Source: Chitinivibrionales bacterium (lineage in GTDB: Bacteria; Fibrobacterota; Chitinivibrionia; Chitinivibrionales; WJKA01). From it: a stretch of 25,369 bases of DNA. The stretch lies in contig JBBRUX010000052.1 in the NCBI GenBank assembly GCA_038247415.1, positions 1 through 25,369 on the forward strand, read 5' to 3'. Below are positions 5,280 through 25,369 of the stretch, piece by piece. A model generated the notes under the pieces. It worked only from the letters and a program-made list of their open reading frames with translations, had not been told where the DNA came from and searched no databases. The position numbers and the translations under genes are program-made. Position 1 is the stretch's first letter; the number at the start of each line of letters is the position of its first letter.

Positions 5280-7082
5280 ATGGCAAAAAAACAAATCAAT
5301 GTCATGATTACAGCCTTCAGAGATGGATTCCAATCTGTCTATGGAGCACGAGTCTTTACTAGAGATTATATTCCAGCAATTGCAGCTGCACGTGATGCCG
5401 GAATTTCCTATTTCGAAGCGGGTGGAGGAGCGATGTTTCAATCCTCCTATTTTTACTGTAACGAAGATGCATTTGCGCACATGGATGAGTTCAGGAAAAT
5501 TGCAGGCCCGGACGCAAACCTGCAGACACTTGCACGTGGTGTTAATGTTGTATGCCTCGATTCACAACCGCGCGATATCATAAAGTTACACGCCGTACTT
5601 TTCAAAAAACATGGAATAACTACTATAAGGAACTTCGATGCGCTCAACGATGTTGACAATTTGATATACAGCGGACACTGTATCCATGATGCAGGGCTGA
5701 AACATCAGGTCGTAGTAACCATGATGGAATTGCCACCAGGATGCGAAGGTGCGCATACACCCGAGTTTTATTCCAAGACATTGCGTAGTATTCTCGATGC
5801 CGGAATTCCTTACGATTCAGTTTGTTTTAAAGACGCATCCGGGACATCGATCCCGTCAAAAGTGTACGAAACTATCAGTCAAGCACGTCGCATGGTTCCT
5901 CAAGGAACCAGTATCCATTTCCACACCCACGAGACAGCCGGAATTGGTGTGATCCAATACAAGGCCGCACTTGATGCTGGGGCAGATGCGATCGACTTGT
6001 CAATGGCGCCTGTTTCTGGCGGTACCTGCCAGACAGATGTAATGACAATGTGGCATGCTCTGCGGGGTACCGATTACGATCTCGGAATAAATGTGGAAAA
6101 GATGATGGAAGCCGAAGAAGTTTTTAAGGAATGCATGAAAAACTACCTTATTCCTCCTGAATCGCGCGCTGTTGAGCCTCTGATCCCGTTTTCTCCCATG
6201 CCCGGTGGGGCGTTGACTGCCAATACACAGATGCTTCGCGATAACGGAATAATGAATAAATATCCAGAAATTATAAAGGCAATGAGTGAGGTTGTCCGAC
6301 GTGGTGGCTTTGGGACATCGGTAACACCGGTTTCACAGTTTTACTTTCAGCAAGCTTACAACAATGTACTATTTGGTAACTGGAAAAAAATTGCAGAAGG
6401 ATATGGCAAGATGGTTCTGGGATATTTTGGGAAGACACCGGTCATGCCTGATCAGGAAATCAGATCGATAGCATCGCAGCAGCTCAATCTTCCGCCAACC
6501 TCCGAAAAAACAGTAGACATAGATGATCGGGATGCAAAAAAAGGCATTGGTTGGGCAAAGACAGCCCTCGCAAATGCTCACATAACCGACATTACAGACG
6601 AGAAAATATTTATTGTTGCAGCATGCAAAGAAAAGGGCATTACCTTTCTAAAAGGTGAAGCTAAGTCCGCAGTGCGTAAAGTTGAGACCAAGAATGATAC
6701 ACCGACCACACAATCATCACATAACAATCTTTCGGTAACCATTGACGGAAAACTGTTCACTGTGCAGATGCAGAATGATAGTGCCGTTGTCAACGGAGTC
6801 AAGCATTCGTACACAGTAACAGATGGAATTGTAAAGGCCGGAGAATCGTCAAATGCCGTAGCAGCCACAGAACGAATGATATCTTCACCCCTCCCGGGTA
6901 ATGTGGTACGGGTTCTTATTGCTGTTGAACAGCATGTACAAGAAGGTGATGTGTTATTTATTGTTGAAGCAATGAAAATGGAAACGGAAATTAAATCAAA
7001 ATATGCAGGTGTCCTCAAATCAATAGCTGTCAAGCAGGGCGATCAGGTGACAACAGGTCAAGAACTTGCAAAGATTATATAG
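5280..7082 (+). CDS. oadA: Oxaloacetate decarboxylase alpha subunit (carboxyltransferase + biotin carrier)
   Basis: FRDGFQS, CFKDASG, HTH, MPGG and VTPVSQ carboxyltransferase motifs. C-terminal biotinyl domain SPLPG..VEAMKMETEI. Flanked by oadG and oadB. Confidence 0.92.
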   Translation: MAKKQINVMITAFRDGFQSVYGARVFTRDYIPAIAAARDAGISYFEAGGGAMFQSSYFYCNEDAFAHMDEFRKIAGPDANLQTLARGVNVVCLDSQPRDIIKLHAVLFKKHGITTIRNFDALNDVDNLIYSGHCIHDAGLKHQVVVTMMELPPGCEGAHTPEFYSKTLRSILDAGIPYDSVCFKDASGTSIPSKVYETISQARRMVPQGTSIHFHTHETAGIGVIQYKAALDAGADAIDLSMAPVSGGTCQTDVMTMWHALRGTDYDLGINVEKMMEAEEVFKECMKNYLIPPESRAVEPLIPFSPMPGGALTANTQMLRDNGIMNKYPEIIKAMSEVVRRGGFGTSVTPVSQFYFQQAYNNVLFGNWKKIAEGYGKMVLGYFGKTPVMPDQEIRSIASQQLNLPPTSEKTVDIDDRDAKKGIGWAKTALANAHITDITDEKIFIVAACKEKGITFLKGEAKSAVRKVETKNDTPTTQSSHNNLSVTIDGKLFTVQMQNDSAVVNGVKHSYTVTDGIVKAGESSNAVAATERMISSPLPGNVVRVLIAVEQHVQEGDVLFIVEAMKMETEIKSKYAGVLKSIAVKQGDQVTTGQELAKII

Positions 7083-7094
7083 GAGAATCACATC

Positions 7095-8456
7095 ATGAGA
7101 TTGATAGCACTGTTTTTTATTATCTGCATTGGGGTAAGTGCGGTTGTGGCATCAGAGCATTCGTCCCCCATTGCGTCAACAGTTGCCATTGTTCCCGCAC
7201 TAGCTACTGGGGGCTCTGGGAATATCAATTCTCCACAACAGGAGAACGCGCGTGGTTTCTCTGATTCAATGCTTCAGCTTTGGAGGAGCACTGGTGTTGC
7301 AAATCTTGCATGGCAGAATGTTGTCATGATCATGGTAGGTCTGCTTTTAATTTTCCTCGCGATAGCAAAGGGTTTTGAGCCGCTTTTGCTTATCCCTATT
7401 GGCTTTGGAGGGATCTTGGCCAATATCCCTGTTGCAGAAATTGCGGCATTACCCATAACAACAGCAATTATGCAACAATCAGTGGGTCCAGCCTTGGTAA
7501 CCACAACGTTTGTTGGTGGCTTTCTGGGGCAAATTTATTCGTTTGGCATAGCATCCGGGCTTTTCCCGTTACTCATTTTTATTGGGGTTGGCGCCATGAT
7601 CGATTTTGGGCCACTCATTGCCAATCCGCGGACCGCGTTTCTTGGGGGTGCTGCACAGATCGGTATTTTTGGTACCGTTTTAGGGGCACTCGCATTATCC
7701 AAATATCTCCCGTTCATCAATTTTAGTCTTAAGGATGCTGCCTCAATTGGTATTATTGGCGGCGCCGATGGCCCAACCGCAATATTTCTTGCATCTCGTC
7801 TTTCTCCCGATTTACTCGGATCAATTGCTGTTGCTGCCTACTCCTATATGGCGCTGGTTCCTATCATTCAGCCTCCAATAATGCGAATGCTGACAACGCC
7901 CGCAGAACGGGGGATACAAATGAAACAGCTTCGCCATGTGTCAAAACGCGAAAAAATTGTTTTCCCGATCGCAGTTCTTCTGTTGGTTTCCTTGTTCATT
8001 CCCGATGCAGCACCCCTTATTGGCGCTTTGATGTTTGGAAATCTGGTAAGGGAATCGGGCGTTGTCGAAAGACTTTCAAAAACTGCTCAAAATGAGCTGA
8101 TAAACATTGTGACAATTCTTCTTGGGCTTGGAGTGGGCTCAAAATTAGCTGCCGACAAGTTTCTTCGCCCAGAAACACTCGGAATACTCCTGCTTGGCCT
8201 GATTGCATTTTCGATGGGGACTGCTTCTGGAGTTCTTCTGGCAAAACTCATGAACCTATTCTCTAAGGAAAAGATTAATCCGCTTATCGGAGCAGCTGGT
8301 GTTTCTGCTGTTCCAATGTCTGCGCGTGTGGTGAATAAGGTAGGACAAGAGACCAATCAGCATAATTTTCTGCTTATGCATGCGATGGGGCCTAATGTGG
8401 CAGGGGTTATTGGAAGTGCCGTTGCAGCTGGCGTACTATTAGCAATTTTAGGGTGA
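7095..8456 (+). CDS. oadB: Na+-translocating decarboxylase beta subunit (OadB)
   Basis: [49 protein letters not shown] and [13 protein letters not shown] hallmark motifs. Confidence 0.96.
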
Positions 8457-15911: not shown

Positions 15912-17348
15912 ATGAAAAATATAAAACTATCTTTTATCTACTTAAGCGCTTTAATGCTTCCATTCGTAAGCAGCATGTTTTCTACAACACATATCTCGTG
16001 CGTCATGGCTGCTGTCGACAAGAAATATCTATCTCAGGGAACTATCGACTCAATGGTCCAACGCGGAGTCTTTGTGATGATGGCTTCCGAAGAAGTCGCT
16101 GGATTTGGAAATAGGCAACAGCAAGCGCTTGAGGGCGCAAAAACGATAGCGCGAAATTTACGGATTATTGCGCGGACCGATCCGAATAGTCGCTATATTT
16201 TATGGAGAGTTAGCGAGCTCGAAACCGAAATTTTGCTGCAAGAGCACGGCCTCAAGATGGAGAATCAGAATAAGAAGCAAAAGGAGGTTAATCAGCTTGT
16301 TGCATCGTTTAATGCAGAAACTGCTCGCAAACGGCCAGATTTACGCATACTCTTTGATATTTGTACAAAAACCGAAGCACTCGATCCTAATAAAAGTGAT
16401 GAACTTAAAGAATTGGCCACTAAACGAGGTGTCGATCTTACGCGTGAGATTGTTGGATTTCTTGAGGTTTACTTAAGAGATAGTAAACTTGATAAAGCTC
16501 AGGAAAATATCGATTATTGCGAAAAGTTTAAACCCTTTATGCCATTGTCACAAACAAAATATTCACAATATGTATCTCAGTTCAAATCGAATTTATCGGT
16601 GAAAGACGAACGGGCAATAGCAAGAACTTCGGTGCAACGTGCCGGGCAATTGCGCCTGGCGTTATCATTTGGCGAAGCAGAAGCAGCTCTTGAGAGTGCT
16701 TCCAAAATTCTTGCCCGACAAACTGCATCAGGTCAATCATCCAGTGAAGTTGCGAAAGTAAATTCTATGGTGAGCGCAGAACGTGTGCGTCTTACCGCAT
16801 CGGAAGATTCTATCGTGGGAGTCGCTCTGGGGTTACTTCACGATGCGGGTTTAATGGCTGGGTTCGAATACCTTGACAAAACATTGCGTCCTACTGGGTT
16901 ACCCAGAGAAAAAATTGCGCTCATCGATAATGCCTTGCTTCAAAAGGCACTTGAAATGAAGCGGGAAACCGAATCAAATATCGAAAATAAAGATGTGGTT
17001 GCGTTTATTCCGGTAGATGTTGATGGGTGGGCCTTTCTCAATGATCTTATGGGATCTGCTCGTGGTAGAGCACAACAGAAAACCGATAGTTTGAGAATTA
17101 TTACCCTTACCCAAGATTTAGCAACGCTTAAGAAAAGGCGTGGATCATATTCGCGTCAAGACTACGATGCTCGTGAAAAAGAATTATTTTCTGAATTGTC
17201 CACATTGAATGCTGCACGCATTTATGCCCTCGTAGAAAAAAAGAAACAAAAAGAAGCGGCAGATTTATTTGCCCGCAATAAAAAAGATTTTCAGAAATAT
17301 ATGTGTAAAGAAGCGTTTGAGTCGGTCGCTTCGGCTGTGGCAGACTAA
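15912..17348 (+). CDS. Hypothetical exported, largely alpha-helical protein (478 aa)
   Basis: Long ORF with a basic then hydrophobic N-terminal signal-like region and charged helical composition. No recognised family motif. Confidence 0.75.
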   Translation: MKNIKLSFIYLSALMLPFVSSMFSTTHISCVMAAVDKKYLSQGTIDSMVQRGVFVMMASEEVAGFGNRQQQALEGAKTIARNLRIIARTDPNSRYILWRVSELETEILLQEHGLKMENQNKKQKEVNQLVASFNAETARKRPDLRILFDICTKTEALDPNKSDELKELATKRGVDLTREIVGFLEVYLRDSKLDKAQENIDYCEKFKPFMPLSQTKYSQYVSQFKSNLSVKDERAIARTSVQRAGQLRLALSFGEAEAALESASKILARQTASGQSSSEVAKVNSMVSAERVRLTASEDSIVGVALGLLHDAGLMAGFEYLDKTLRPTGLPREKIALIDNALLQKALEMKRETESNIENKDVVAFIPVDVDGWAFLNDLMGSARGRAQQKTDSLRIITLTQDLATLKKRRGSYSRQDYDAREKELFSELSTLNAARIYALVEKKKQKEAADLFARNKKDFQKYMCKEAFESVASAVAD

Positions 17349-17371: not shown

Positions 17372-17983
17372 ATGAGAAAGTCGTTTTTGGTGATGATGGT
17401 TATATTTTTGTCTGCTGGAGCTGCGTATTCTGCTGATTTATCTATGGTGTGTCTTAAAACTTCCATAGATAGCATCTTGGGTTCCTCTACTACCATAGAT
17501 ACTGCAGGATTGCCTAAATTGTCAGCAACTGGAACCTGTGATTCGGTGACGCTTTATTATGACACGATCAAGTTTACTCAAAAAATAGCTATTCCAATTT
17601 TAGTTGCCAAAAAGCTATCTCCCTGCAGCTTGAAAATTACGATTGTTCTTTCGTCAAAAGATTCTGTGTATGATGTATGTGGCATATCATCAATCCGTTC
17701 ATTCCAAAGCACTGCAAGGGCTACTCTTGGTCAAGCAGCATTTAGTGCAACGCAGCAGGGAAACAAAATTGTTGTTGTATGGAACTCTGCAAACATGGGT
17801 AGTGTCGCAGATGTAACTATATTGACAATGCGTGGAGAAGCTGTTGCTACTTCTTATGCTGTAAAGTCTGGATCCACACTTTCTCTCGATAAAACGACAG
17901 CATTTTTTCGCTCTGGCCAGTATCAGGTACTTTTGAAATGTGCTGGCAGTTTGTATAGTCAACCAATCATGGTAATTCGTTAA
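17372..17983 (+). CDS. Secreted protein with T9SS type-A-like C-terminal sorting domain
   Basis: Signal peptide MRKSFLVMMVIFLSAGAAYSA. C-terminal ..ADVTILTMRGEAV..SGQYQVLLK..SQPIMVIR pattern resembles Por/T9SS CTDs. GGGG RBS. Confidence 0.65.
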   Translation: MRKSFLVMMVIFLSAGAAYSADLSMVCLKTSIDSILGSSTTIDTAGLPKLSATGTCDSVTLYYDTIKFTQKIAIPILVAKKLSPCSLKITIVLSSKDSVYDVCGISSIRSFQSTARATLGQAAFSATQQGNKIVVVWNSANMGSVADVTILTMRGEAVATSYAVKSGSTLSLDKTTAFFRSGQYQVLLKCAGSLYSQPIMVIR

Positions 17984-19379: not shown

Positions 19380-20246
19380 ATGCGGCAAAAACGTAAGATC
19401 CACGAGAGAATCAGCACACTTACGTCTTTGCCTTCGTTTCCTGTGGTAGCACATCGATTGCTTTCGCTGTGTTCCGATTTGTCTACCTGCGCAGCTTCCG
19501 ACGTAGCCCTATTGCTCAGTGGCGATCCTTCCCTTACGGTGCGTGTTTTGCGTTTGGCAAATAGCGCCTATTATGCTCCCGCATTTCCAATTACAACGCT
19601 TACGCAGGCTGTGGTGATAGTAGGCACACGTGTTATTAGCACTATGGTTCTTGCAATGTCGGTCTTTGATCTCTTCCCGAGCGCCAAGAATACTCAGGTT
19701 TTTGATCGAGATGCATTTTGGCGTCATTGTCTTGCATGTGGGGTTATTGGAAAATTATTGCTTTTAGAGAATTCAAAAAAACCTTCAATAGATCCCGAAA
19801 CAGCATTTTGCGCTGGGCTTTTGCACGATATCGGTACGATAGTGCTCGAACAGTATATGCATGAAGATTACATGCAAACGTGTACCTATGCGAAAGAGCA
19901 TGGGTACGCATTGTATGAAGCGGAACAAAAGGTTCTTGGGTTTACCCATTGCGATGTAGCCGCATGGCTCACTGAAACGTGGGATCTGCCTCAATCGCTC
20001 TGCGCGCCAGCCACATGGCATCACGATCCTTTACGTGATACGATATTTCCAGAAATTACGCGGATATGCCATTATGCCGATTGGGTGCATCGGGAGAGTA
20101 TCCATAAAATAAACCCAGATACCGTGTTGCCTCATGTAGATCCTACGTGTATATCAAGCCTTGGGGTATCAGAAGAGGCCCTTGAAAGAGTGCGCGCTGC
20201 ATGGCCTGGAATGGTGAATGAGCTTGCAAACGCCTACCTTACCTAA
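19380..20246 (+). CDS. HDOD domain signal-transduction protein
   Basis: LPSFPVVA, DPSLTVRVLRLANSAYY, FWRHCL, AFCAGLLHDIG and EQKVLGFTH..W.LP..WHHDP motifs. Confidence 0.93.
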   Translation: MRQKRKIHERISTLTSLPSFPVVAHRLLSLCSDLSTCAASDVALLLSGDPSLTVRVLRLANSAYYAPAFPITTLTQAVVIVGTRVISTMVLAMSVFDLFPSAKNTQVFDRDAFWRHCLACGVIGKLLLLENSKKPSIDPETAFCAGLLHDIGTIVLEQYMHEDYMQTCTYAKEHGYALYEAEQKVLGFTHCDVAAWLTETWDLPQSLCAPATWHHDPLRDTIFPEITRICHYADWVHRESIHKINPDTVLPHVDPTCISSLGVSEEALERVRAAWPGMVNELANAYLT

Positions 20247-20263: not shown

Positions 20264-20292
20264 AAAAAAAGGCCGGAGACTAGTCTCCGGCC
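20264..20292 (-). terminator. Intrinsic terminator of the acc/carboxyltransferase operon, possibly bidirectional
   Basis: Perfect palindrome GGCCGGAGACTAGTCTCCGGCC (20271-20292) followed on the minus strand by T7. Lies between convergent genes. Confidence 0.85.
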
Positions 20293-20322
20293 CTCCTGTT
20301 ATTACTTCTAAAAGTAAATTAC

Positions 20323-22338
20323 CTATACTTCTTCGATTGCAACAAGCGGCTGACCTTTTGATAAGCTTTCGCCGTCTTTTGCCAGAAACTTGATAATTTT
20401 GCAGTTGCAGGGAGCTTCAATCTCGTTAAAGAGTTTCATAGCTTCTACAATGCAAACTTTATCTCCCTTTTTAACGATAGCACCTTCTTGCGTAAGCTTT
20501 GGTTTGCCAGGACCACCAGTAGTATAAAAAGTGCCAACGAGCGGAGCATCGATAGTTTTAGAATAGGTGGGTGCAACGGGTGCCGAAGGCGTCGCAACTG
20601 GTGCAACCGGCGCTACTGTTGCTACAACAGCAGCAGATTCAACGGGCGCTGCTACAGGTGGCAAAGGAGCCATGACGCTTGCCATGCTTGTCTGTGTGCT
20701 GCTTCCACTTGCGGAAAGAGCAATAACAAAATCTCCTTTGCGGATAGAGATCTCATTAATTGCAATTCCAGAAGCACTTGCGAGCATCTGGCTAATACCT
20801 CTATAATCTTCGGCAGAGAGCAAACGAGACGCTGCGTCGATAGTAGTTTGGACGGGTACTGGCGCAGATGCGGGAGCCACCGCAGGTGTAGGTGTTGCTG
20901 CAGATGCGGGCTGATTTTTCTTCTGCTCGAGATCTGCAGGAATAGGAGGCCTATCGGCCGGAGCAAGCACACGCCACTGAAAAAAATCTGTTGCCGGTTG
21001 AGGATACATGATGAAAGAAATGATATCTTCTTCATGATTGATAAGCTTTGGATCTAACCCATCTGTTGCATTGGGCAACATGGGTTTGAAATCGTCGGCT
21101 GGACGATGCGTAATAGGCGTTTCGTCTCCAAGAATTTTCTTGACGAATGCAGGATCGACCGGCGCAGGTGAACGACCATACAATCCGCGCAGATAATCTT
21201 TAACTTCGTTAGGAACCATTTTGTAACGCTCACCCGCCAAAACATTCATAACTGCCTGGGTACCAACAATTTGACTTGTAGGAGTAACAAGCGGAGGGTA
21301 TCCAAGGTCTTTACGAACTGCGCTTACTTCATCGAGAGCCAAGGGAAGCTTATCGAGCGCGTTCTGATTAGAAAGCTGCGATTTGAAGTTTGAAATCATT
21401 CCGCCAGGTATCTGGTGAATGAGAATACCAGGATCGATAACAGGCTGAATTGAATGATCCTGTCGGCGTTTTGGTGCCAGTTCGGTAAAATATTTATTGA
21501 CACGTGCAAGTGCTTCCATGTCGAGATTGGGATGGTACTCGGTATCGGCAAAAATTGCAGCTACTGTTTCGACGGGTGGCTGCGACGATGTACCTGCCAT
21601 CGAGGATACCGCGCAGTCGACTGCACCAGCACCAGCGCGAACACCATCAACATAGGTTGAGGTTCCCATGCCACTTGACGCATGGCAATGAAGCTGAATA
21701 GGCACGTTCACAGCCTTGATAAGTGCGGTAACAAGACGTTCCGACTCGATGGGCGAAAGAATTCCGGCCATATCTTTGACGCAAATTGAATCGATGCCTA
21801 AAGCTGCTTGTTCACGAGCATATTCGACAAATTTATCGATTGTATGAACAGGGCTTGTTGTGTAGCAGAGTGTACCTTGAGCGTGTCCGCCATACTTTTT
21901 AACGGCCTTAATGGCTGCTTCAAGATTGCGGGTATCGTTAAGTGCATCAAAGATACGGAAAATATCCATACCATTTTCACAGGCTAACGCAACAAATCGG
22001 TCGACAACATCATCTGCGTAATGACGATAGCCAACGAGGTTCTGGCCTCGTAGGAGCATTTGCAGGGGAGTGTTTTTTGCTTTGGATTTGATAAGCCGAA
22101 GCCGTTCCCATGGATTCTCTCTGAGAAATCTCAGACAGGTATCAAAGGTTGCGCCGCCCCAGCATTCGAGAGAATAGTATCCAACTTTGTCAACAACATC
22201 GATAATACCCATAATGTCTTCGGTACGCATACGGGTAGCCCACAGTGATTGATGTGCATCGCGCAGCGTAGTATCGGTGATGCGCAACGGTATGGTATGA
22301 AGGCTTTCTTCGTGCTTTTCCTTAGGAGATTTGGCCAT
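20323..22338 (-). CDS. Pyruvate/oxaloacetate carboxyltransferase (PycB/OadA/transcarboxylase-5S type) fused to a full AccB-type biotin carboxyl carrier (671 aa)
   Basis: Start ATG at 22338 (MAKSPK) after AAAGGA. DTTLRDAHQSL, ECWGGATFD, CVKDMAG, LHCH, IPGGMISN and GYPPLVTPTSQIVG motifs. The last ~166 aa have an AccB-like N-terminal segment (INEISIRKGDFVIALS), a Pro/Ala linker and APLVGTFY..GPGKP..VKKGDKVCIVEAMKLFNEIEA. Confidence 0.92.
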   Translation of the reverse strand: MAKSPKEKHEESLHTIPLRITDTTLRDAHQSLWATRMRTEDIMGIIDVVDKVGYYSLECWGGATFDTCLRFLRENPWERLRLIKSKAKNTPLQMLLRGQNLVGYRHYADDVVDRFVALACENGMDIFRIFDALNDTRNLEAAIKAVKKYGGHAQGTLCYTTSPVHTIDKFVEYAREQAALGIDSICVKDMAGILSPIESERLVTALIKAVNVPIQLHCHASSGMGTSTYVDGVRAGAGAVDCAVSSMAGTSSQPPVETVAAIFADTEYHPNLDMEALARVNKYFTELAPKRRQDHSIQPVIDPGILIHQIPGGMISNFKSQLSNQNALDKLPLALDEVSAVRKDLGYPPLVTPTSQIVGTQAVMNVLAGERYKMVPNEVKDYLRGLYGRSPAPVDPAFVKKILGDETPITHRPADDFKPMLPNATDGLDPKLINHEEDIISFIMYPQPATDFFQWRVLAPADRPPIPADLEQKKNQPASAATPTPAVAPASAPVPVQTTIDAASRLLSAEDYRGISQMLASASGIAINEISIRKGDFVIALSASGSSTQTSMASVMAPLPPVAAPVESAAVVATVAPVAPVATPSAPVAPTYSKTIDAPLVGTFYTTGGPGKPKLTQEGAIVKKGDKVCIVEAMKLFNEIEAPCNCKIIKFLAKDGESLSKGQPLVAIEEV

Positions 22339-22366
22339 TGTCGGTCCTTTCGTCACAATCGGTTTC

Positions 22367-23320
22367 TTATTGTGTAAAAACGCCCATTTTAGCAAATTTT
22401 TCAAAACGTTTATCGAGAAGCTTTGCAGTGTCCAGTACCGTTAACTTTTTAAGGTTGCGTAGAATCGATTCCTTGACATTTGCAATTGTTTCAGCGTAGT
22501 TTTTATGAGCTCCGCCAAGTGGTTCAGGAATGATTTCATCAATGATACCAAGTTCCAAAAGCTCTGGAGCGGTGATCTTGAGTGCTTGGGCAGCAATAGG
22601 AGCGTTTGCTCCATCACGCCATAAAATTGCCGCACAACCTTCTGGAGAAATAACAGAATATACAGAATAGCGAAGCATACAAATACTATCACCAACACCA
22701 ATCCCCAGTGCTCCACCACTGCCGCCTTCTCCTGCAACAATACAAATAATAGGAACGGTGAGTCGTGCCATTTCGGTAAGGTTACGGGCTATCGCCTCTG
22801 CCTGCCCGCGTTCTTCTGCGTCAAGGCCAGGATAGGCGCCTTGAGTATCGATAAGAGAAATAACTGGCAGATTATATTTTTCGGCAATTTTCATCAGGCG
22901 CAAAGCTTTGCGATATCCTTCGGGCTTGGCTTGGCCAAAATTTCTCTCGGCATTTTCTTTTATGTTTTTGCCCTTATTGTGACCAATAATCATAACTTTC
23001 TGGTCGCCAATAGTTGCAAATCCTCCAATAAGAGCTGCATCATCACCAAACCGTCGATCTCCGTGGAGTTCAAAAAAATCGGTGCACAAGAGCGAAATGT
23101 AATCTTGAAGAATTGGGCGCTTTGGGCTACGGGCGATTTGTACAGTTTGCCAAGGGGTAAGCGATGAGTAGATACGTTCTTTGTGTTCGTCGCATCGCGC
23201 TTGAAGCTCAATAATTTGACCGCTGAAATCCCCTTTGTTTTCGGCCGAAAGCTTGCGAAGCTTTTCGATCATTTCTTCTATTTCTACAACGGGTTTTTCG
23301 AAGTCCAATCCGATTTCCAT
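22367..23320 (-). CDS. accA: Acetyl-CoA carboxylase carboxyltransferase alpha subunit
   Basis: LDFEKP, LTPWQTVQIAR, FFELHGDRRFGDD, PEGYRKALRLM, AEERGQAEAIARNL, GEGGSGGALG and YSVISPEGCAAILW motifs. Confidence 0.97.
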   Translation of the reverse strand: MEIGLDFEKPVVEIEEMIEKLRKLSAENKGDFSGQIIELQARCDEHKERIYSSLTPWQTVQIARSPKRPILQDYISLLCTDFFELHGDRRFGDDAALIGGFATIGDQKVMIIGHNKGKNIKENAERNFGQAKPEGYRKALRLMKIAEKYNLPVISLIDTQGAYPGLDAEERGQAEAIARNLTEMARLTVPIICIVAGEGGSGGALGIGVGDSICMLRYSVYSVISPEGCAAILWRDGANAPIAAQALKITAPELLELGIIDEIIPEPLGGAHKNYAETIANVKESILRNLKKLTVLDTAKLLDKRFEKFAKMGVFTQ

Positions 23321-23344
23321 ATTAGTATTCCTTGTGAAGGAGGT

Positions 23345-24175
23345 TTATTTCCGAATGTAATAGGAAAGAATTAATGCCAATTTTTGGCGTAATTCAGATC
23401 TTGGAACAATTGCATCAACAAAACCGTGTTCCAGAAGATACTCTGATGTTTGAAAATTTTCGGGTAATTTTTGCTTGATTGTTGTTTCGATAACCCGACG
23501 TCCTGCAAAGCCGATAAGTGCTCCAGGTTCAGCAAGATTGATATCTCCTACAGTTGCAAAACTTGCAGAAACACCGCCGGTTGTTGGATCGGTGAGCACA
23601 GATATATAAGGAAGTTTTTTATCATCGAGTTTTGCAATTCCTGCGCATGTTTTTGCCATTTGCATGAGGGAAAGAATTCCTTCGTGCATGCGGGCGCCAC
23701 CAGAGGCAGAAAAAATGATGTAGGGAAGATTGTTTTTAAGGGCATACAATCCACCTTGTAAGATTTTTTCCCCGGTACCGCTTCCAAGGCTACCACCAAG
23801 AAATCTAAAATCCATTACAGAAAGCGAAACCGCAATGCCATTAATGGTACCGTAGCCTGTGACCACTGAATCGTTAAGTTTTGTCTTAATTTTTGTTTCG
23901 ACAATGCGGTCGGCATAGCTGCCTTTGCTATCTACAAAAGAGAGCGGATCGGCAGGGCTAATATTTCCAAAAAGTTCGTTAAATGATCCGCTGTCAAGAA
24001 TTTGGCCTATACGTTCGTAGGCGCCAAGACGGCTATGAAAATTGCATTTAGGACAAACTTTAAGATTGTGATTCCAGTCTTCTTTGAAAATGTGGGCTTT
24101 GCACTTATCGCAAACAGTCCAGATTTCATCACGGGCCGTCTGATTTTTATCGCTTTTTTTAGTAAACCATCCCAT
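23345..24175 (-). CDS. accD: Acetyl-CoA carboxylase carboxyltransferase beta subunit
   Basis: Zn finger CDKC..CPKC. MDFRFLGGSLG, SASGGARMHEG..SLMQMAK, DPTTGGVSASFA, IGFAGRRVI and FQTSEYLLEHG motifs. Confidence 0.97.
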   Translation of the reverse strand: MGWFTKKSDKNQTARDEIWTVCDKCKAHIFKEDWNHNLKVCPKCNFHSRLGAYERIGQILDSGSFNELFGNISPADPLSFVDSKGSYADRIVETKIKTKLNDSVVTGYGTINGIAVSLSVMDFRFLGGSLGSGTGEKILQGGLYALKNNLPYIIFSASGGARMHEGILSLMQMAKTCAGIAKLDDKKLPYISVLTDPTTGGVSASFATVGDINLAEPGALIGFAGRRVIETTIKQKLPENFQTSEYLLEHGFVDAIVPRSELRQKLALILSYYIRK

Positions 24176-24265
24176 GGATTATCCTTTGCTAAGTTTCATT
24201 GCGCAGGCGAGAAATTTTTAGACTTTTAGAATATCAAAATATCTAAAAATAGCTCGCATTCTCTT

Positions 24266-24300
24266 AAAGAAAACGCGAAGGAGAGCTCTTTCGCGTTTTT
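24266..24300 (-). terminator. Probable intrinsic terminator after pckG
   Basis: Minus strand AAAAACGCGAA-AGAGCTCTCC-TTCGCGTTTTCTTT, starting 11 nt after the pckG stop. Confidence 0.7.
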
Positions 24301-24311
24301 ATACCGAGGGT

Positions 24312-25369
24312 TTATCCCAAGCGTTTTTCGAGGATTGCCAATTCATCCCTCAATGCCTTGGGCATACGATCACCAAAATTTGCATAATGATCTTTAACTG
24401 AAGCTAATTCAGATTGCCATTCGGTCTTATTAATTTTGAGGAGTTCTGCCATATCTTCCTGCGATACTCCAGCAGGACGATCGATAGCATCGATGGTAGG
24501 CATGAAACCGATTTCGGTATCGACTGCTTTTCCTTTTCCATCGGTACGTTCGAAAATCCATTTGAGAACACGGCTGTTTTCGCCGTATCCAGGCCAGAGC
24601 CATTTGCCTTCGGGTGTTTTACGGAACCAGTTGACAAAAAACATTTTAGGCAGCTTGTCGGCTGTAGACTTTGTTCCCATGTTGATCCAATGTGCAAAAT
24701 AATCTCCCATATGGTAACCACAGAAGGGGAGCATTGCAAACGGGTCGCGACGAACAGTGCCTGCCTTAAGGTCAAGTGCAGCAGCGGTTACTTCAGATCC
24801 AACGATGGATCCCATGAAAACACCATGATTCCAGCTGCGTGCTTCGTGCACCAGAGGAATTGTGCTTGGACGACGACCACCAAAGAGAATTGCACTGATT
24901 GGAACGCCTTTAGGATCTTCCCATTCTGGAGCAACCGCAGGGCATTGATGTGCTGGTGCTGTAAAGCGAGCATTGGCGTGGGCTGCAATGTTTTCAGCTT
25001 TTTTCTCGGGGTTGCGATCCCATTCTTTGCCTTTCCAATCGATAATTTTACCCTTGGGAGCATCGTATCCGATACCTTCCCACCAGACATCTCCGTCTTC
25101 GGTGAGAGCCACATTGGTAAAAATAGTATTCTTTTCAATTGACTTCATGGCATTTGGATTAGATTCCATTGATGTTCCTGGTGCAACGCCAAAGAAACCG
25201 GCTTCTGGATTGATTGCATACAAACGACCATCTGCACCAAATTTCATCCATGCAATGTCGTCACCAACTGTTTCAACTTTCCAGCCAGGAATTGTTGGAA
25301 CAAGCATGGCTAGGTTTGTTTTTCCGCAAGCCGAGGGGAATGCAGCTGCTACATACTTTTTATCGCCAG
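24312..25369 (-). CDS. pckG: GTP-dependent phosphoenolpyruvate carboxykinase, 5'-truncated by the window edge
   Basis: Frame is open to the window end: [15 protein letters not shown] (P-loop), [48 protein letters not shown] and [17 protein letters not shown]. Confidence 0.97.

Follow-up and report, generated by a model that had tools for sequence, protein, structure and literature searches.

A candidate ATP-independent route to malonyl-CoA in a Chitinivibrionales bacterium: an accD-accA operon with a carboxyltransferase::AccB fusion

In textbooks, bacteria universally enter fatty-acid synthesis through acetyl-CoA carboxylase (ACC), an enzyme which depends on a biotin carboxylase (BC) and is pursued as a target for antibiotics. 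How, then, might malonyl-CoA be formed in a bacterium which carries the two carboxyltransferase subunits of that enzyme and no detectable BC? The question is raised by a contig of 25,369 nucleotides from a draft genome of a Chitinivibrionales bacterium (GenBank assembly GCA_038247415.1, contig JBBRUX010000052.1), analysed here at its full length and referred to as the window. On its minus strand four genes stand in a row, namely pckG, accD, accA and a gene in which a carboxyltransferase is fused to AccB. An original prediction, made from the letters of the window, had proposed that the last three form an ATP-independent transcarboxylase, and comparative evidence supports this: the operon probably encodes a biotin enzyme which makes malonyl-CoA from oxaloacetate and acetyl-CoA without ATP. 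The genes and domains concerned are as follows.

24312-25367, minus strand: pckG, GTP-dependent phosphoenolpyruvate (PEP) carboxykinase (PEPCK), C-terminal 351 amino acids, cut by the contig end (NF003253, 541 bits, cut-off 504)
23345-24175, minus strand: accD, carboxyltransferase beta subunit, 276 amino acids, with an N-terminal four-Cys zinc ribbon (TIGR00515, 364.2 bits, cut-off 317.45)
22367-23320, minus strand: accA, carboxyltransferase alpha subunit, 317 amino acids (TIGR00513, 454.3 bits, cut-off 319.3)
20323-22338, minus strand: fusion gene, 671 amino acids, OadA/PycB/5S-type oxaloacetate-pyruvate carboxyltransferase, Ala/Pro linker and complete AccB (Pfam HMGL-like, PYC_OADA and Biotin_lipoyl)
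20929-22287, minus strand: carboxyltransferase domain of the fusion, about residues 18-470 (matches to solved structures)
20326-20829, minus strand: AccB part of the fusion, about residues 504-671, comprising AccB N-terminal domain, second Ala/Pro linker and biotinyl domain (alignment to 4hr7_B)

AccA is also recovered by NF004344 (484.9 bits, cut-off 357) and by Pfam ACCA (478 bits). AccD, encoded by a single copy in the genome, matches Pfam Carboxyl_trans; its Zn_ribbon_ACC score of 23.8 bits lies just under the cut-off of 24.5, and the four cysteines C22, C25, C41 and C44 are invariant in 32 orthologues. The pckG gene lies directly upstream of accD across a spacer of 136 nt, accD and accA are separated by 24 nt, and AAGGAA precedes the ATG of accA. 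The longest open reading frame (ORF) of the fusion, 20323-22404, begins with a TTG that lies within accA; the true start is most likely the ATG at 22338, which follows AAAGGA 28 nt beyond the accA stop and yields the 671-residue protein. With this start the three co-directional genes have the gaps of 24 and 28 nt originally described.

The closest solved relatives of the carboxyltransferase domain are OadA of Vibrio cholerae (2nx9, 4e-147), PycB (5ks8, 9e-142) and the transcarboxylase subunit 5S (1rqb, 4.6e-129). Among NCBIfam models the fusion passes NF006761, a domain-type model named 'pyruvate carboxylase subunit B' (755.8 bits, cut-off 402), and falls under both oadA equivalog cut-offs (TIGR01108, 681.4 against 756.5; NF008985, 633.5 against 718), that for 5S (NF008984, 512 against 827) and both for PycB (586.8 against 734 and 516.4 against 1182). 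The RD, KD, HxH and Thr motifs, noted as intact in the original prediction, are present and conserved in 28 orthologues. Counted from the ATG at 22338, R26, D27, Q30, D189, H217, H219, P353 and the biotinylation motif E632-A633-M634-K635-L636 are invariant, while K188, T352 and T354 are conserved in at least 90%. From the pyruvate carboxylase, 5S and OadA literature we take R26-D27, Q30, K188-D189, H217/H219 and T352-P353-T354 to be the catalytic positions. The biotinyl lysine, K635, is encoded at 20434-20436.

The carrier had been called AccB-type in the original prediction, and the alignments agree. The C-terminal 170 residues of the fusion are colinear with full-length Escherichia coli AccB (PDB 4hr7_B) through N-terminal domain, Ala/Pro linker and biotinyl domain, with no gap in the residues that immediately precede the biotinyl core. 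The match to TIGR00531 extends over positions 4-155 of 156 and scores 98.5 bits (cut-off 115.2), and in 16 of 41 genomes of the order the orthologous AccB parts exceed that cut-off. The 1.3S and MmdC carriers align solely with the biotinyl core (1.3S, 1dcz, at residues 111-167 of the 170-residue query), and the 5ks8 carrier aligns weakly (13.7 bits). By alignment, the tail of the fusion is a whole AccB and not the usual short OadA or PycB carrier. A different arrangement of the same carboxyltransferase type is seen in protein P0001 (1272 amino acids, ENA source), in which it shares one chain with an OadB-like membrane subunit; its identity is 46% to the window fusion and 62% to the window OadB.

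What could load the biotin of such a carrier? No BC gene occurs in the window, as originally stated, and the search was extended to the whole genome, of which the window is one entire contig (C52). The assembly comprises 3.84 Mb in 99 contigs at a depth of about 10x (96.2% complete, 1.15% contaminated), and three runs from a single study yielded contigs that tile the region, showing 0-1 differences and spanning every gene junction. The BC domain PF02785 has zero matches in this genome. The accC model TIGR00514 matches only CarB (twice, through its two ATP-grasp halves) and PurD, at best with 54.6 bits against a cut-off of 626.5, and tblastn with AccC of six relatives returned only CarB and PurD at 21-32% identity, with no BC fragment even at E 0.01; the absence of accC rests on a draft genome and is not proof. 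A 436-residue ATP-grasp match on contig C4, considered as a hidden BC, is PurD (497 bits). A stand-alone AccB was likewise not found in the genome; this gene and a BC were the two that the original prediction had named as possible refutations.

The only PF01039 proteins in the genome are AccD and AccA. Five biotin/lipoyl domains are present, in the fusion, in a second OadA-like protein encoded within the window, in two E2 lipoyl acyltransferases and in one FabH-like protein; the last three were rejected as carriers, the FabH-like domain having a lipoyl-type motif. That FabH/KAS III-like protein (442 amino acids) is itself an unusual fusion, in which a lipoyl-type domain stands at the N terminus together with an Ala/Pro linker, and a 492-residue ORF lies directly upstream of its gene (G000, contig C2, 40488-41816, minus strand; locus L008, 412-1740). 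The second OadA-like protein (5280-7082, plus strand) is divergent and has a short carrier; it shares 26% identity with the fusion, reaches no NCBIfam cut-off and is encoded directly before OadB, a Na+-pump subunit (7095-8456, plus strand; TIGR01109, 560 bits), 12 kb from the fusion. This pair is found in about a quarter of the order. The genome encodes both FabD (344 bits against a cut-off of 261) and BirA (130 bits against 83). PEP carboxylase was not found in the genome and, since there is no BC, there would be no pyruvate carboxylase, so that the adjacent PEPCK is the evident source of oxaloacetate.

The distribution of these genes was followed in 40 relatives of the same order, spanning 9 families and giving 41 genomes with this one, 30 of which are high-quality. 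The fusion occurs in all 41, and in 70 of 71 order relatives in a wider phylum sample. Relatives' fusions are 55-66% identical over their full length; the exceptions are a divergent copy, at 42%, and another which a contig break divides. The fusion tail is the sole full-length TIGR00531 match in each of the 41 genomes, none of which holds a free AccB. Synteny and accC absence made up the profile to which the original prediction had pointed: the three genes of the operon adjoin one another in 37 of the 40 relatives (two of them via a second copy or a split contig only) and unlinked in one genus (3 genomes) with accA located elsewhere, while 27 of the 41 genomes lack a BC domain. It is present in the remaining 14 (10 of the 30 high-quality genomes) and in 20 of the 71 order relatives of the wider sample. 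Where accC exists it is an orphan in varying neighbourhoods, never adjoining accB or a carboxyltransferase gene. Neighbours of ten such orphans (loci L092-L101, in genomes G001, G002, G004, G005, G007, G009, G017, G021, G023 and G035) include glycosidases, HDOD, an ABC transporter and HipA, among others.

OadB is missing from 31 of the 41 genomes and, in the ten that have it, stands beside the other OadA-like type or a small biotin carrier. Neither BC nor OadB was detected in 19 genomes, 13 of which combine a completeness of 90% or more with a contamination of 5% or less. FabD was found in 40 of 41. The immediate upstream neighbour of accD is pckG in the window and in eight of the 40 relatives, and all of these genomes are without accC; they are close kin, and the association is descriptive rather than a test.

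Conservation of the operon was compared between genomes with and without accC. Across both kinds, mean column identity is 76% for AccD (32 sequences), 72% for AccA (30) and 66% for the fusion (28). Mean pairwise identity in genomes with and without accC is 0.80 and 0.77 for the carboxyltransferase core, 0.40 and 0.39 for the AccB N-terminal domain and 0.64 and 0.60 for the biotinyl domain, respectively. On a quick maximum-likelihood tree of the fusion (46 rows, with one partial and one truncated sequence excluded), the accC state requires 6 changes, or 4-5 when only strongly supported branches are counted, as read from this gene tree and not from a species tree. The window fusion falls outside the accC-bearing clade of its own family, and accC-less genomes are among its nearest rows. 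The AccC proteins of relatives are 54-75% identical and their fusions 55-66%; because the two diverge to a similar extent, the pattern fits an old, vertical inheritance of accC with repeated loss. Since the domains of the fusion are equally conserved with and without accC, the fusion may have arisen first and rendered AccC dispensable, and for the same reason the AccB N-terminal domain would seem to be retained for a role beyond AccC alone.

Direct observation extends to the genes with their domains and conserved residues, to the lack of other carriers and to the way in which accC, OadB and FabD are distributed. In the 19 genomes without BC and OadB, one reaction would be left as the sole remaining biotin chemistry, the interconversion of oxaloacetate and acetyl-CoA with pyruvate and malonyl-CoA, because the conserved fusion carries the only AccB and adjoins AccD and AccA, and nothing else loads or unloads biotin. 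The presence of FabD sets the likely direction towards malonyl-CoA. We infer the complex itself, its direction of flux and every catalytic step along the following lines. Within the fusion, the carboxyltransferase domain would pass the carboxyl group from oxaloacetate to the biotin on the protein's own AccB arm, freeing pyruvate; the arm would then swing to AccA2D2, where the carboxyl group would be handed to acetyl-CoA. The net reaction would be oxaloacetate + acetyl-CoA -> pyruvate + malonyl-CoA, needing neither ATP nor bicarbonate. Oxaloacetate would come from the PEPCK encoded upstream (PEP + CO2 + GDP -> oxaloacetate + GTP), such that the energy of PEP would cover both one GTP and the carboxylation, and malonyl-CoA would feed FabD and then type II fatty-acid synthesis. 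In relatives with an orphan accC, the arm could also be charged by ATP and bicarbonate, and the complex could act as acetyl-CoA carboxylase and as pyruvate carboxylase.

Several points weigh against ATP-independent malonyl-CoA synthesis by this operon. The family to which this genome belongs was sampled with 6 others, every one of which carries accC; since they do, and since the assembly has a depth of about 10x, 99 contigs and a break inside pck, an unassembled accC in this genome is possible. Were it there, the complex could still transcarboxylate, though it would not be obliged to. The operon and fusion are equally conserved in accC-bearing genomes, thus the architecture alone is no proof of ATP independence, and the accC changes were mapped on a tree of the fusion gene. 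This genome, unlike most relatives, also holds OadB and the second OadA-like protein; oxaloacetate decarboxylation may compete for substrate, and OadB may contact the fusion arm. The reaction lies close to equilibrium, and cells usually contain far less oxaloacetate than pyruvate. A flow towards malonyl-CoA would depend on the pull of fatty-acid synthesis and a high PEPCK flux. The support is of a comparative kind, and co-transcription with pck is putative. The last point touches the limits of the transcript, for which the original prediction had proposed a terminator-like hairpin at either end.

20266-20297, minus strand: intrinsic terminator 3' of the fusion gene, 14-bp stem, 7 G-C pairs and a T run
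24253-24296, minus strand: weak hairpins in the pck-accD spacer, possible attenuator or partial terminator, indistinguishable from chance

The downstream hairpin, originally placed at 20264-20292, holds up well: it folds at -24.6 kcal/mol with z = -5.4, and 0 of 200 shuffles fold equally well. The upstream one, placed at 24266-24300 and found at about 24253-24296, does not, with z = -1.2 and 28 of 200 shuffles folding equally well, no better than chance.

Three other accounts of the locus have to be set against carboxyl transfer from oxaloacetate to acetyl-CoA. The operon could encode an ordinary ATP-dependent ACC whose accC was left unassembled, AccC charging the fused AccB and the carboxyltransferase domain adding a PycB-like pyruvate carboxylase activity on the shared carrier. 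An enzyme of this kind is likely in the accC-bearing relatives, and the same operon beside an orphan accC elsewhere in 6 of 6 sampled same-family genomes, the draft state of this one (96% complete, 99 contigs, about 10x, broken inside pck), the match to the 'pyruvate carboxylase subunit B' domain model and the retained N-terminal domain of AccB, the part that touches AccC in PDB 4hr7, all speak for it here. The genes which flank accC in four same-family relatives (G001, G002, G004 and G005) are scattered or absent in this genome, and their order speaks neither for nor against a deletion of accC. Against the account, the whole assembly yielded not one BC fragment, even at E 0.01. The fusion, moreover, stands outside the accC-bearing clade of its family, with pckG upstream as in its accC-less near rows; the AccB N-terminal domain is equally conserved where accC is missing; and the 27 genomes without BC, including the 13 of high quality also without OadB, imply that the system works without one. 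For this genome we therefore regard an unassembled accC with an ATP-dependent enzyme as unlikely, if still worth serious attention.

The presence of OadB in the window, 12 kb away, suggests another account, in which the fusion serves a Na+-pumping oxaloacetate decarboxylase as alpha subunit and its linkage to accD-accA is incidental, or in which AccAD feeds malonyl-CoA-derived carboxybiotin to the pump as in a Malonomonas-type decarboxylase. V. cholerae OadA is indeed the best solved relative (2nx9, 4e-147), and the TIGR01108 score of 681 is near the 756.5 cut-off. Window OadB, however, directly adjoins the other OadA-like gene (5280-7082), which has its own biotin domain; only 10 of 41 genomes of the order have OadB, each with that other type or a small carrier as its neighbour, against 41 of 41 for the fusion. 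The carrier of the fusion is AccB-type and not the short OadA/MmdC type, while AccD and AccA pass acetyl-CoA carboxylase equivalog cut-offs and no other source of malonyl-CoA is evident. The fusion was accordingly rejected as a pump alpha subunit, and the account as a whole is very improbable. The chance is slimmer still that the enzyme runs mainly in reverse, from malonyl-CoA and pyruvate to acetyl-CoA and oxaloacetate in an anaplerotic or catabolic role, or that the operon is a functionless relic in accC-less genomes. The reverse direction had been raised in the original prediction as well. Reversal would be allowed by a reaction near equilibrium, as given in the accessible part of PMC8085960, yet FabD needs malonyl-CoA, for which there is no other source (no BC, no further PF01039 protein), and oxaloacetate is already supplied by PEPCK. 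A relic, for its part, is at odds with the strong purifying conservation of the three genes and with fusion domains equally conserved in the accC-less genomes.

If carboxyl transfer from oxaloacetate is taken as the function of the operon, a broader proposal can be made, towards which we lean with some reserve. The whole order would have made the ATP-dependent step of fatty-acid synthesis dispensable, oxaloacetate made by PEPCK charging its only AccB, and the committed step from acetyl-CoA to malonyl-CoA would be free of any ATP cost; BC would have been lost repeatedly and be an accessory where it survives, and the AccB N-terminal domain would have another job, for example holding the arm on the assembly of AccAD and carboxyltransferase.

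Beyond the order, a scan of public genomes for the fusion returned mostly ordinary, short-linker homologues from Kiritimatiellae and Lentisphaerae without adjacent accDA. The operon was common to only two (L012 and L034) of the 23 loci checked (L012-L034), a result which says little on distribution outside the phylum. In the Kiritimatiellae/Lentisphaerae loci L013-L023 the carboxyltransferase domain is 59-66% identical and an AccB-like biotinyl domain is kept; the AccB N-terminal domain is missing or degenerate, and accD or accA was not found within 6 kb upstream. Another family of the same phylum (f10) was sampled with 55 genomes, many near-complete with few contigs, and no fusion was found there at E <= 1e-60. 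Its BC domain occurs solely inside an ORF of about 1205 amino acids, in 18 of the 55. In five f10 genomes searched (G041, G044, G056, G058 and G079) the sole carboxyltransferase found is a 520-residue PF01039 protein. Its gene lies about 1 kb from that of a small biotin protein (124-185 amino acids) in G079 and G041, the only two with both on one contig, and the genomes searched also have a separate PYC_OADA protein of 531-544 amino acids without a carrier. This resembles a 12S/1.3S/5S-like set and suggests that malonyl-CoA may arise without a classical ACC there too.

The remaining content of the window lies outside the operon. An HDOD/HD-domain gene (19380-20246, plus strand) is convergent to the fusion gene; it has many paralogues in the genome, and a homologue of 35-45% identity sits at the same position in 15 of the 40 relatives. 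An integrase (rve) core fragment is located near the contig start (225-764, minus strand), and two adjacent ORFs, 15912-17348 and 17372-17983 (both plus strand; 478 and 203 amino acids), have no Pfam match.

Should the proposed function of the operon be true, most of an order of anaerobes would make malonyl-CoA by carboxyl transfer, sparing one ATP per C2 unit, and lipid synthesis would be bound to the PEPCK/CO2 node. Metabolic reconstructions from metagenome-assembled genomes would change, given that the genes are now labelled 'pyruvate carboxylase subunit B' together with accA and accD. The operon would also offer a ready module of three genes with which engineered strains could obtain malonyl-CoA at a saving of ATP; according to the accessible part of a 2021 review, the transcarboxylation principle had not yet been applied to this end (PMC8085960).

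Among known systems, the heteromeric ACC of E. coli type (EC 6.4.1.2) shares with the operon AccA and AccD over equivalog cut-offs and a carrier colinear with full AccB. It differs in that no AccC was found here or in 27 of the 41 genomes, and in that AccB is always fused here and never beside accC. The Na+-translocating OadA/OadB/OadG of V. cholerae and Klebsiella provides the closest solved structure (2nx9) and the same order of carboxyltransferase then carrier; the fusion, however, lies under the OadA equivalog cut-off and is about 70-80 residues longer because it includes a whole AccB, while OadB is missing in 31 of 41 genomes and paired with another gene in the window. With PycA/PycB of Methylobacillus flagellatus (PDB 5ks8) the fusion has in common the NCBIfam PycB domain model and a match to 5ks8 chain C at 9e-142, and the orphan AccC of accC-bearing relatives could play the role of PycA. 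Unlike in that system, PycA or BC was not found here, the carrier is AccB-type and the gene stands in an operon with accD-accA.

Methylmalonyl-CoA carboxytransferase of Propionibacterium freudenreichii (12S, 5S and 1.3S) offers an analogy for the proposed ATP-independent biotin shuttle between a keto acid and an acyl-CoA. The 5S subunit of that enzyme and the carboxyltransferase domain of the fusion are clearly homologous (1rqb, 4.6e-129) and of one superfamily, though the fusion misses the NF008984 equivalog (512 against 827 bits). Gene content is as in the transcarboxylase, no BC having been detected in the genome, and ATP-independent transfer is predicted on this basis. In the Propionibacterium enzyme, however, 12S is a single-chain hexameric carboxyltransferase, here split into AccA and AccD; 1.3S is a small free carrier and 5S has none attached, where here the carrier is a fused, complete AccB; and its role is propionate fermentation. 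This transcarboxylase (EC 2.1.3.1) is near equilibrium and also interconverts acetyl-CoA and oxaloacetate with malonyl-CoA and pyruvate, as stated in the accessible part of PMC8085960, which cites Swick and Wood (1960) for the use of acetyl-CoA and malonyl-CoA.

The nearest parallel in function comes from protists, and it lessens the novelty that the original prediction had assumed, since the same reaction is reported there. In the accessible parts of PMC8136499 and PMC7985675, the ACCT/PycB enzyme is said to produce malonyl-CoA out of acetyl-CoA plus oxaloacetate without a conventional ACC; an Entamoeba histolytica protein is said to form malonyl-CoA by this route (PMC8136499), and orthologues are given for Mastigamoeba, Giardia, retortamonads and Monocercomonoides (PMC8136499, PMC7985675, PMC12308965, likewise from their accessible parts). 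This '(methyl)malonyl-CoA:pyruvate transcarboxylase' resembles the operon in uniting a PycB-type carboxyltransferase, a carrier and an acyl-CoA carboxyltransferase without BC. It is, however, a single polypeptide, and its eukaryotic host does no more than elongate fatty acids, whereas here there are three genes, a two-gene AccD/AccA as acyl-CoA carboxyltransferase, a complete AccB as carrier and a product predicted to serve type II fatty-acid synthesis. Two long homologues, P0090 (1275 amino acids) and P0117 (1310 amino acids), are built in this manner and carry a single-chain PF01039 carboxyltransferase after the PycB-biotin carboxyl carrier protein part, with no BLAST match to this AccA or AccD. 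A literature search, outside which lay the primary protist papers (Jordan 2003; Barbosa-Cabrera 2012), found no description of a bacterial accD-accA-pycB::accB operon and none of bacteria with type II fatty-acid synthesis and no BC; the accessible part of Lombard and Moreira (2011; PMC3199775) makes no mention of Fibrobacter and sets transcarboxylase-like sequences aside. The reaction itself is not new, being a side activity of the Propionibacterium transcarboxylase and that reported for the fused enzyme of Entamoeba and Giardia; the bacterial three-gene form described here, if it functions as proposed, would be the prokaryotic counterpart of the protist enzyme.

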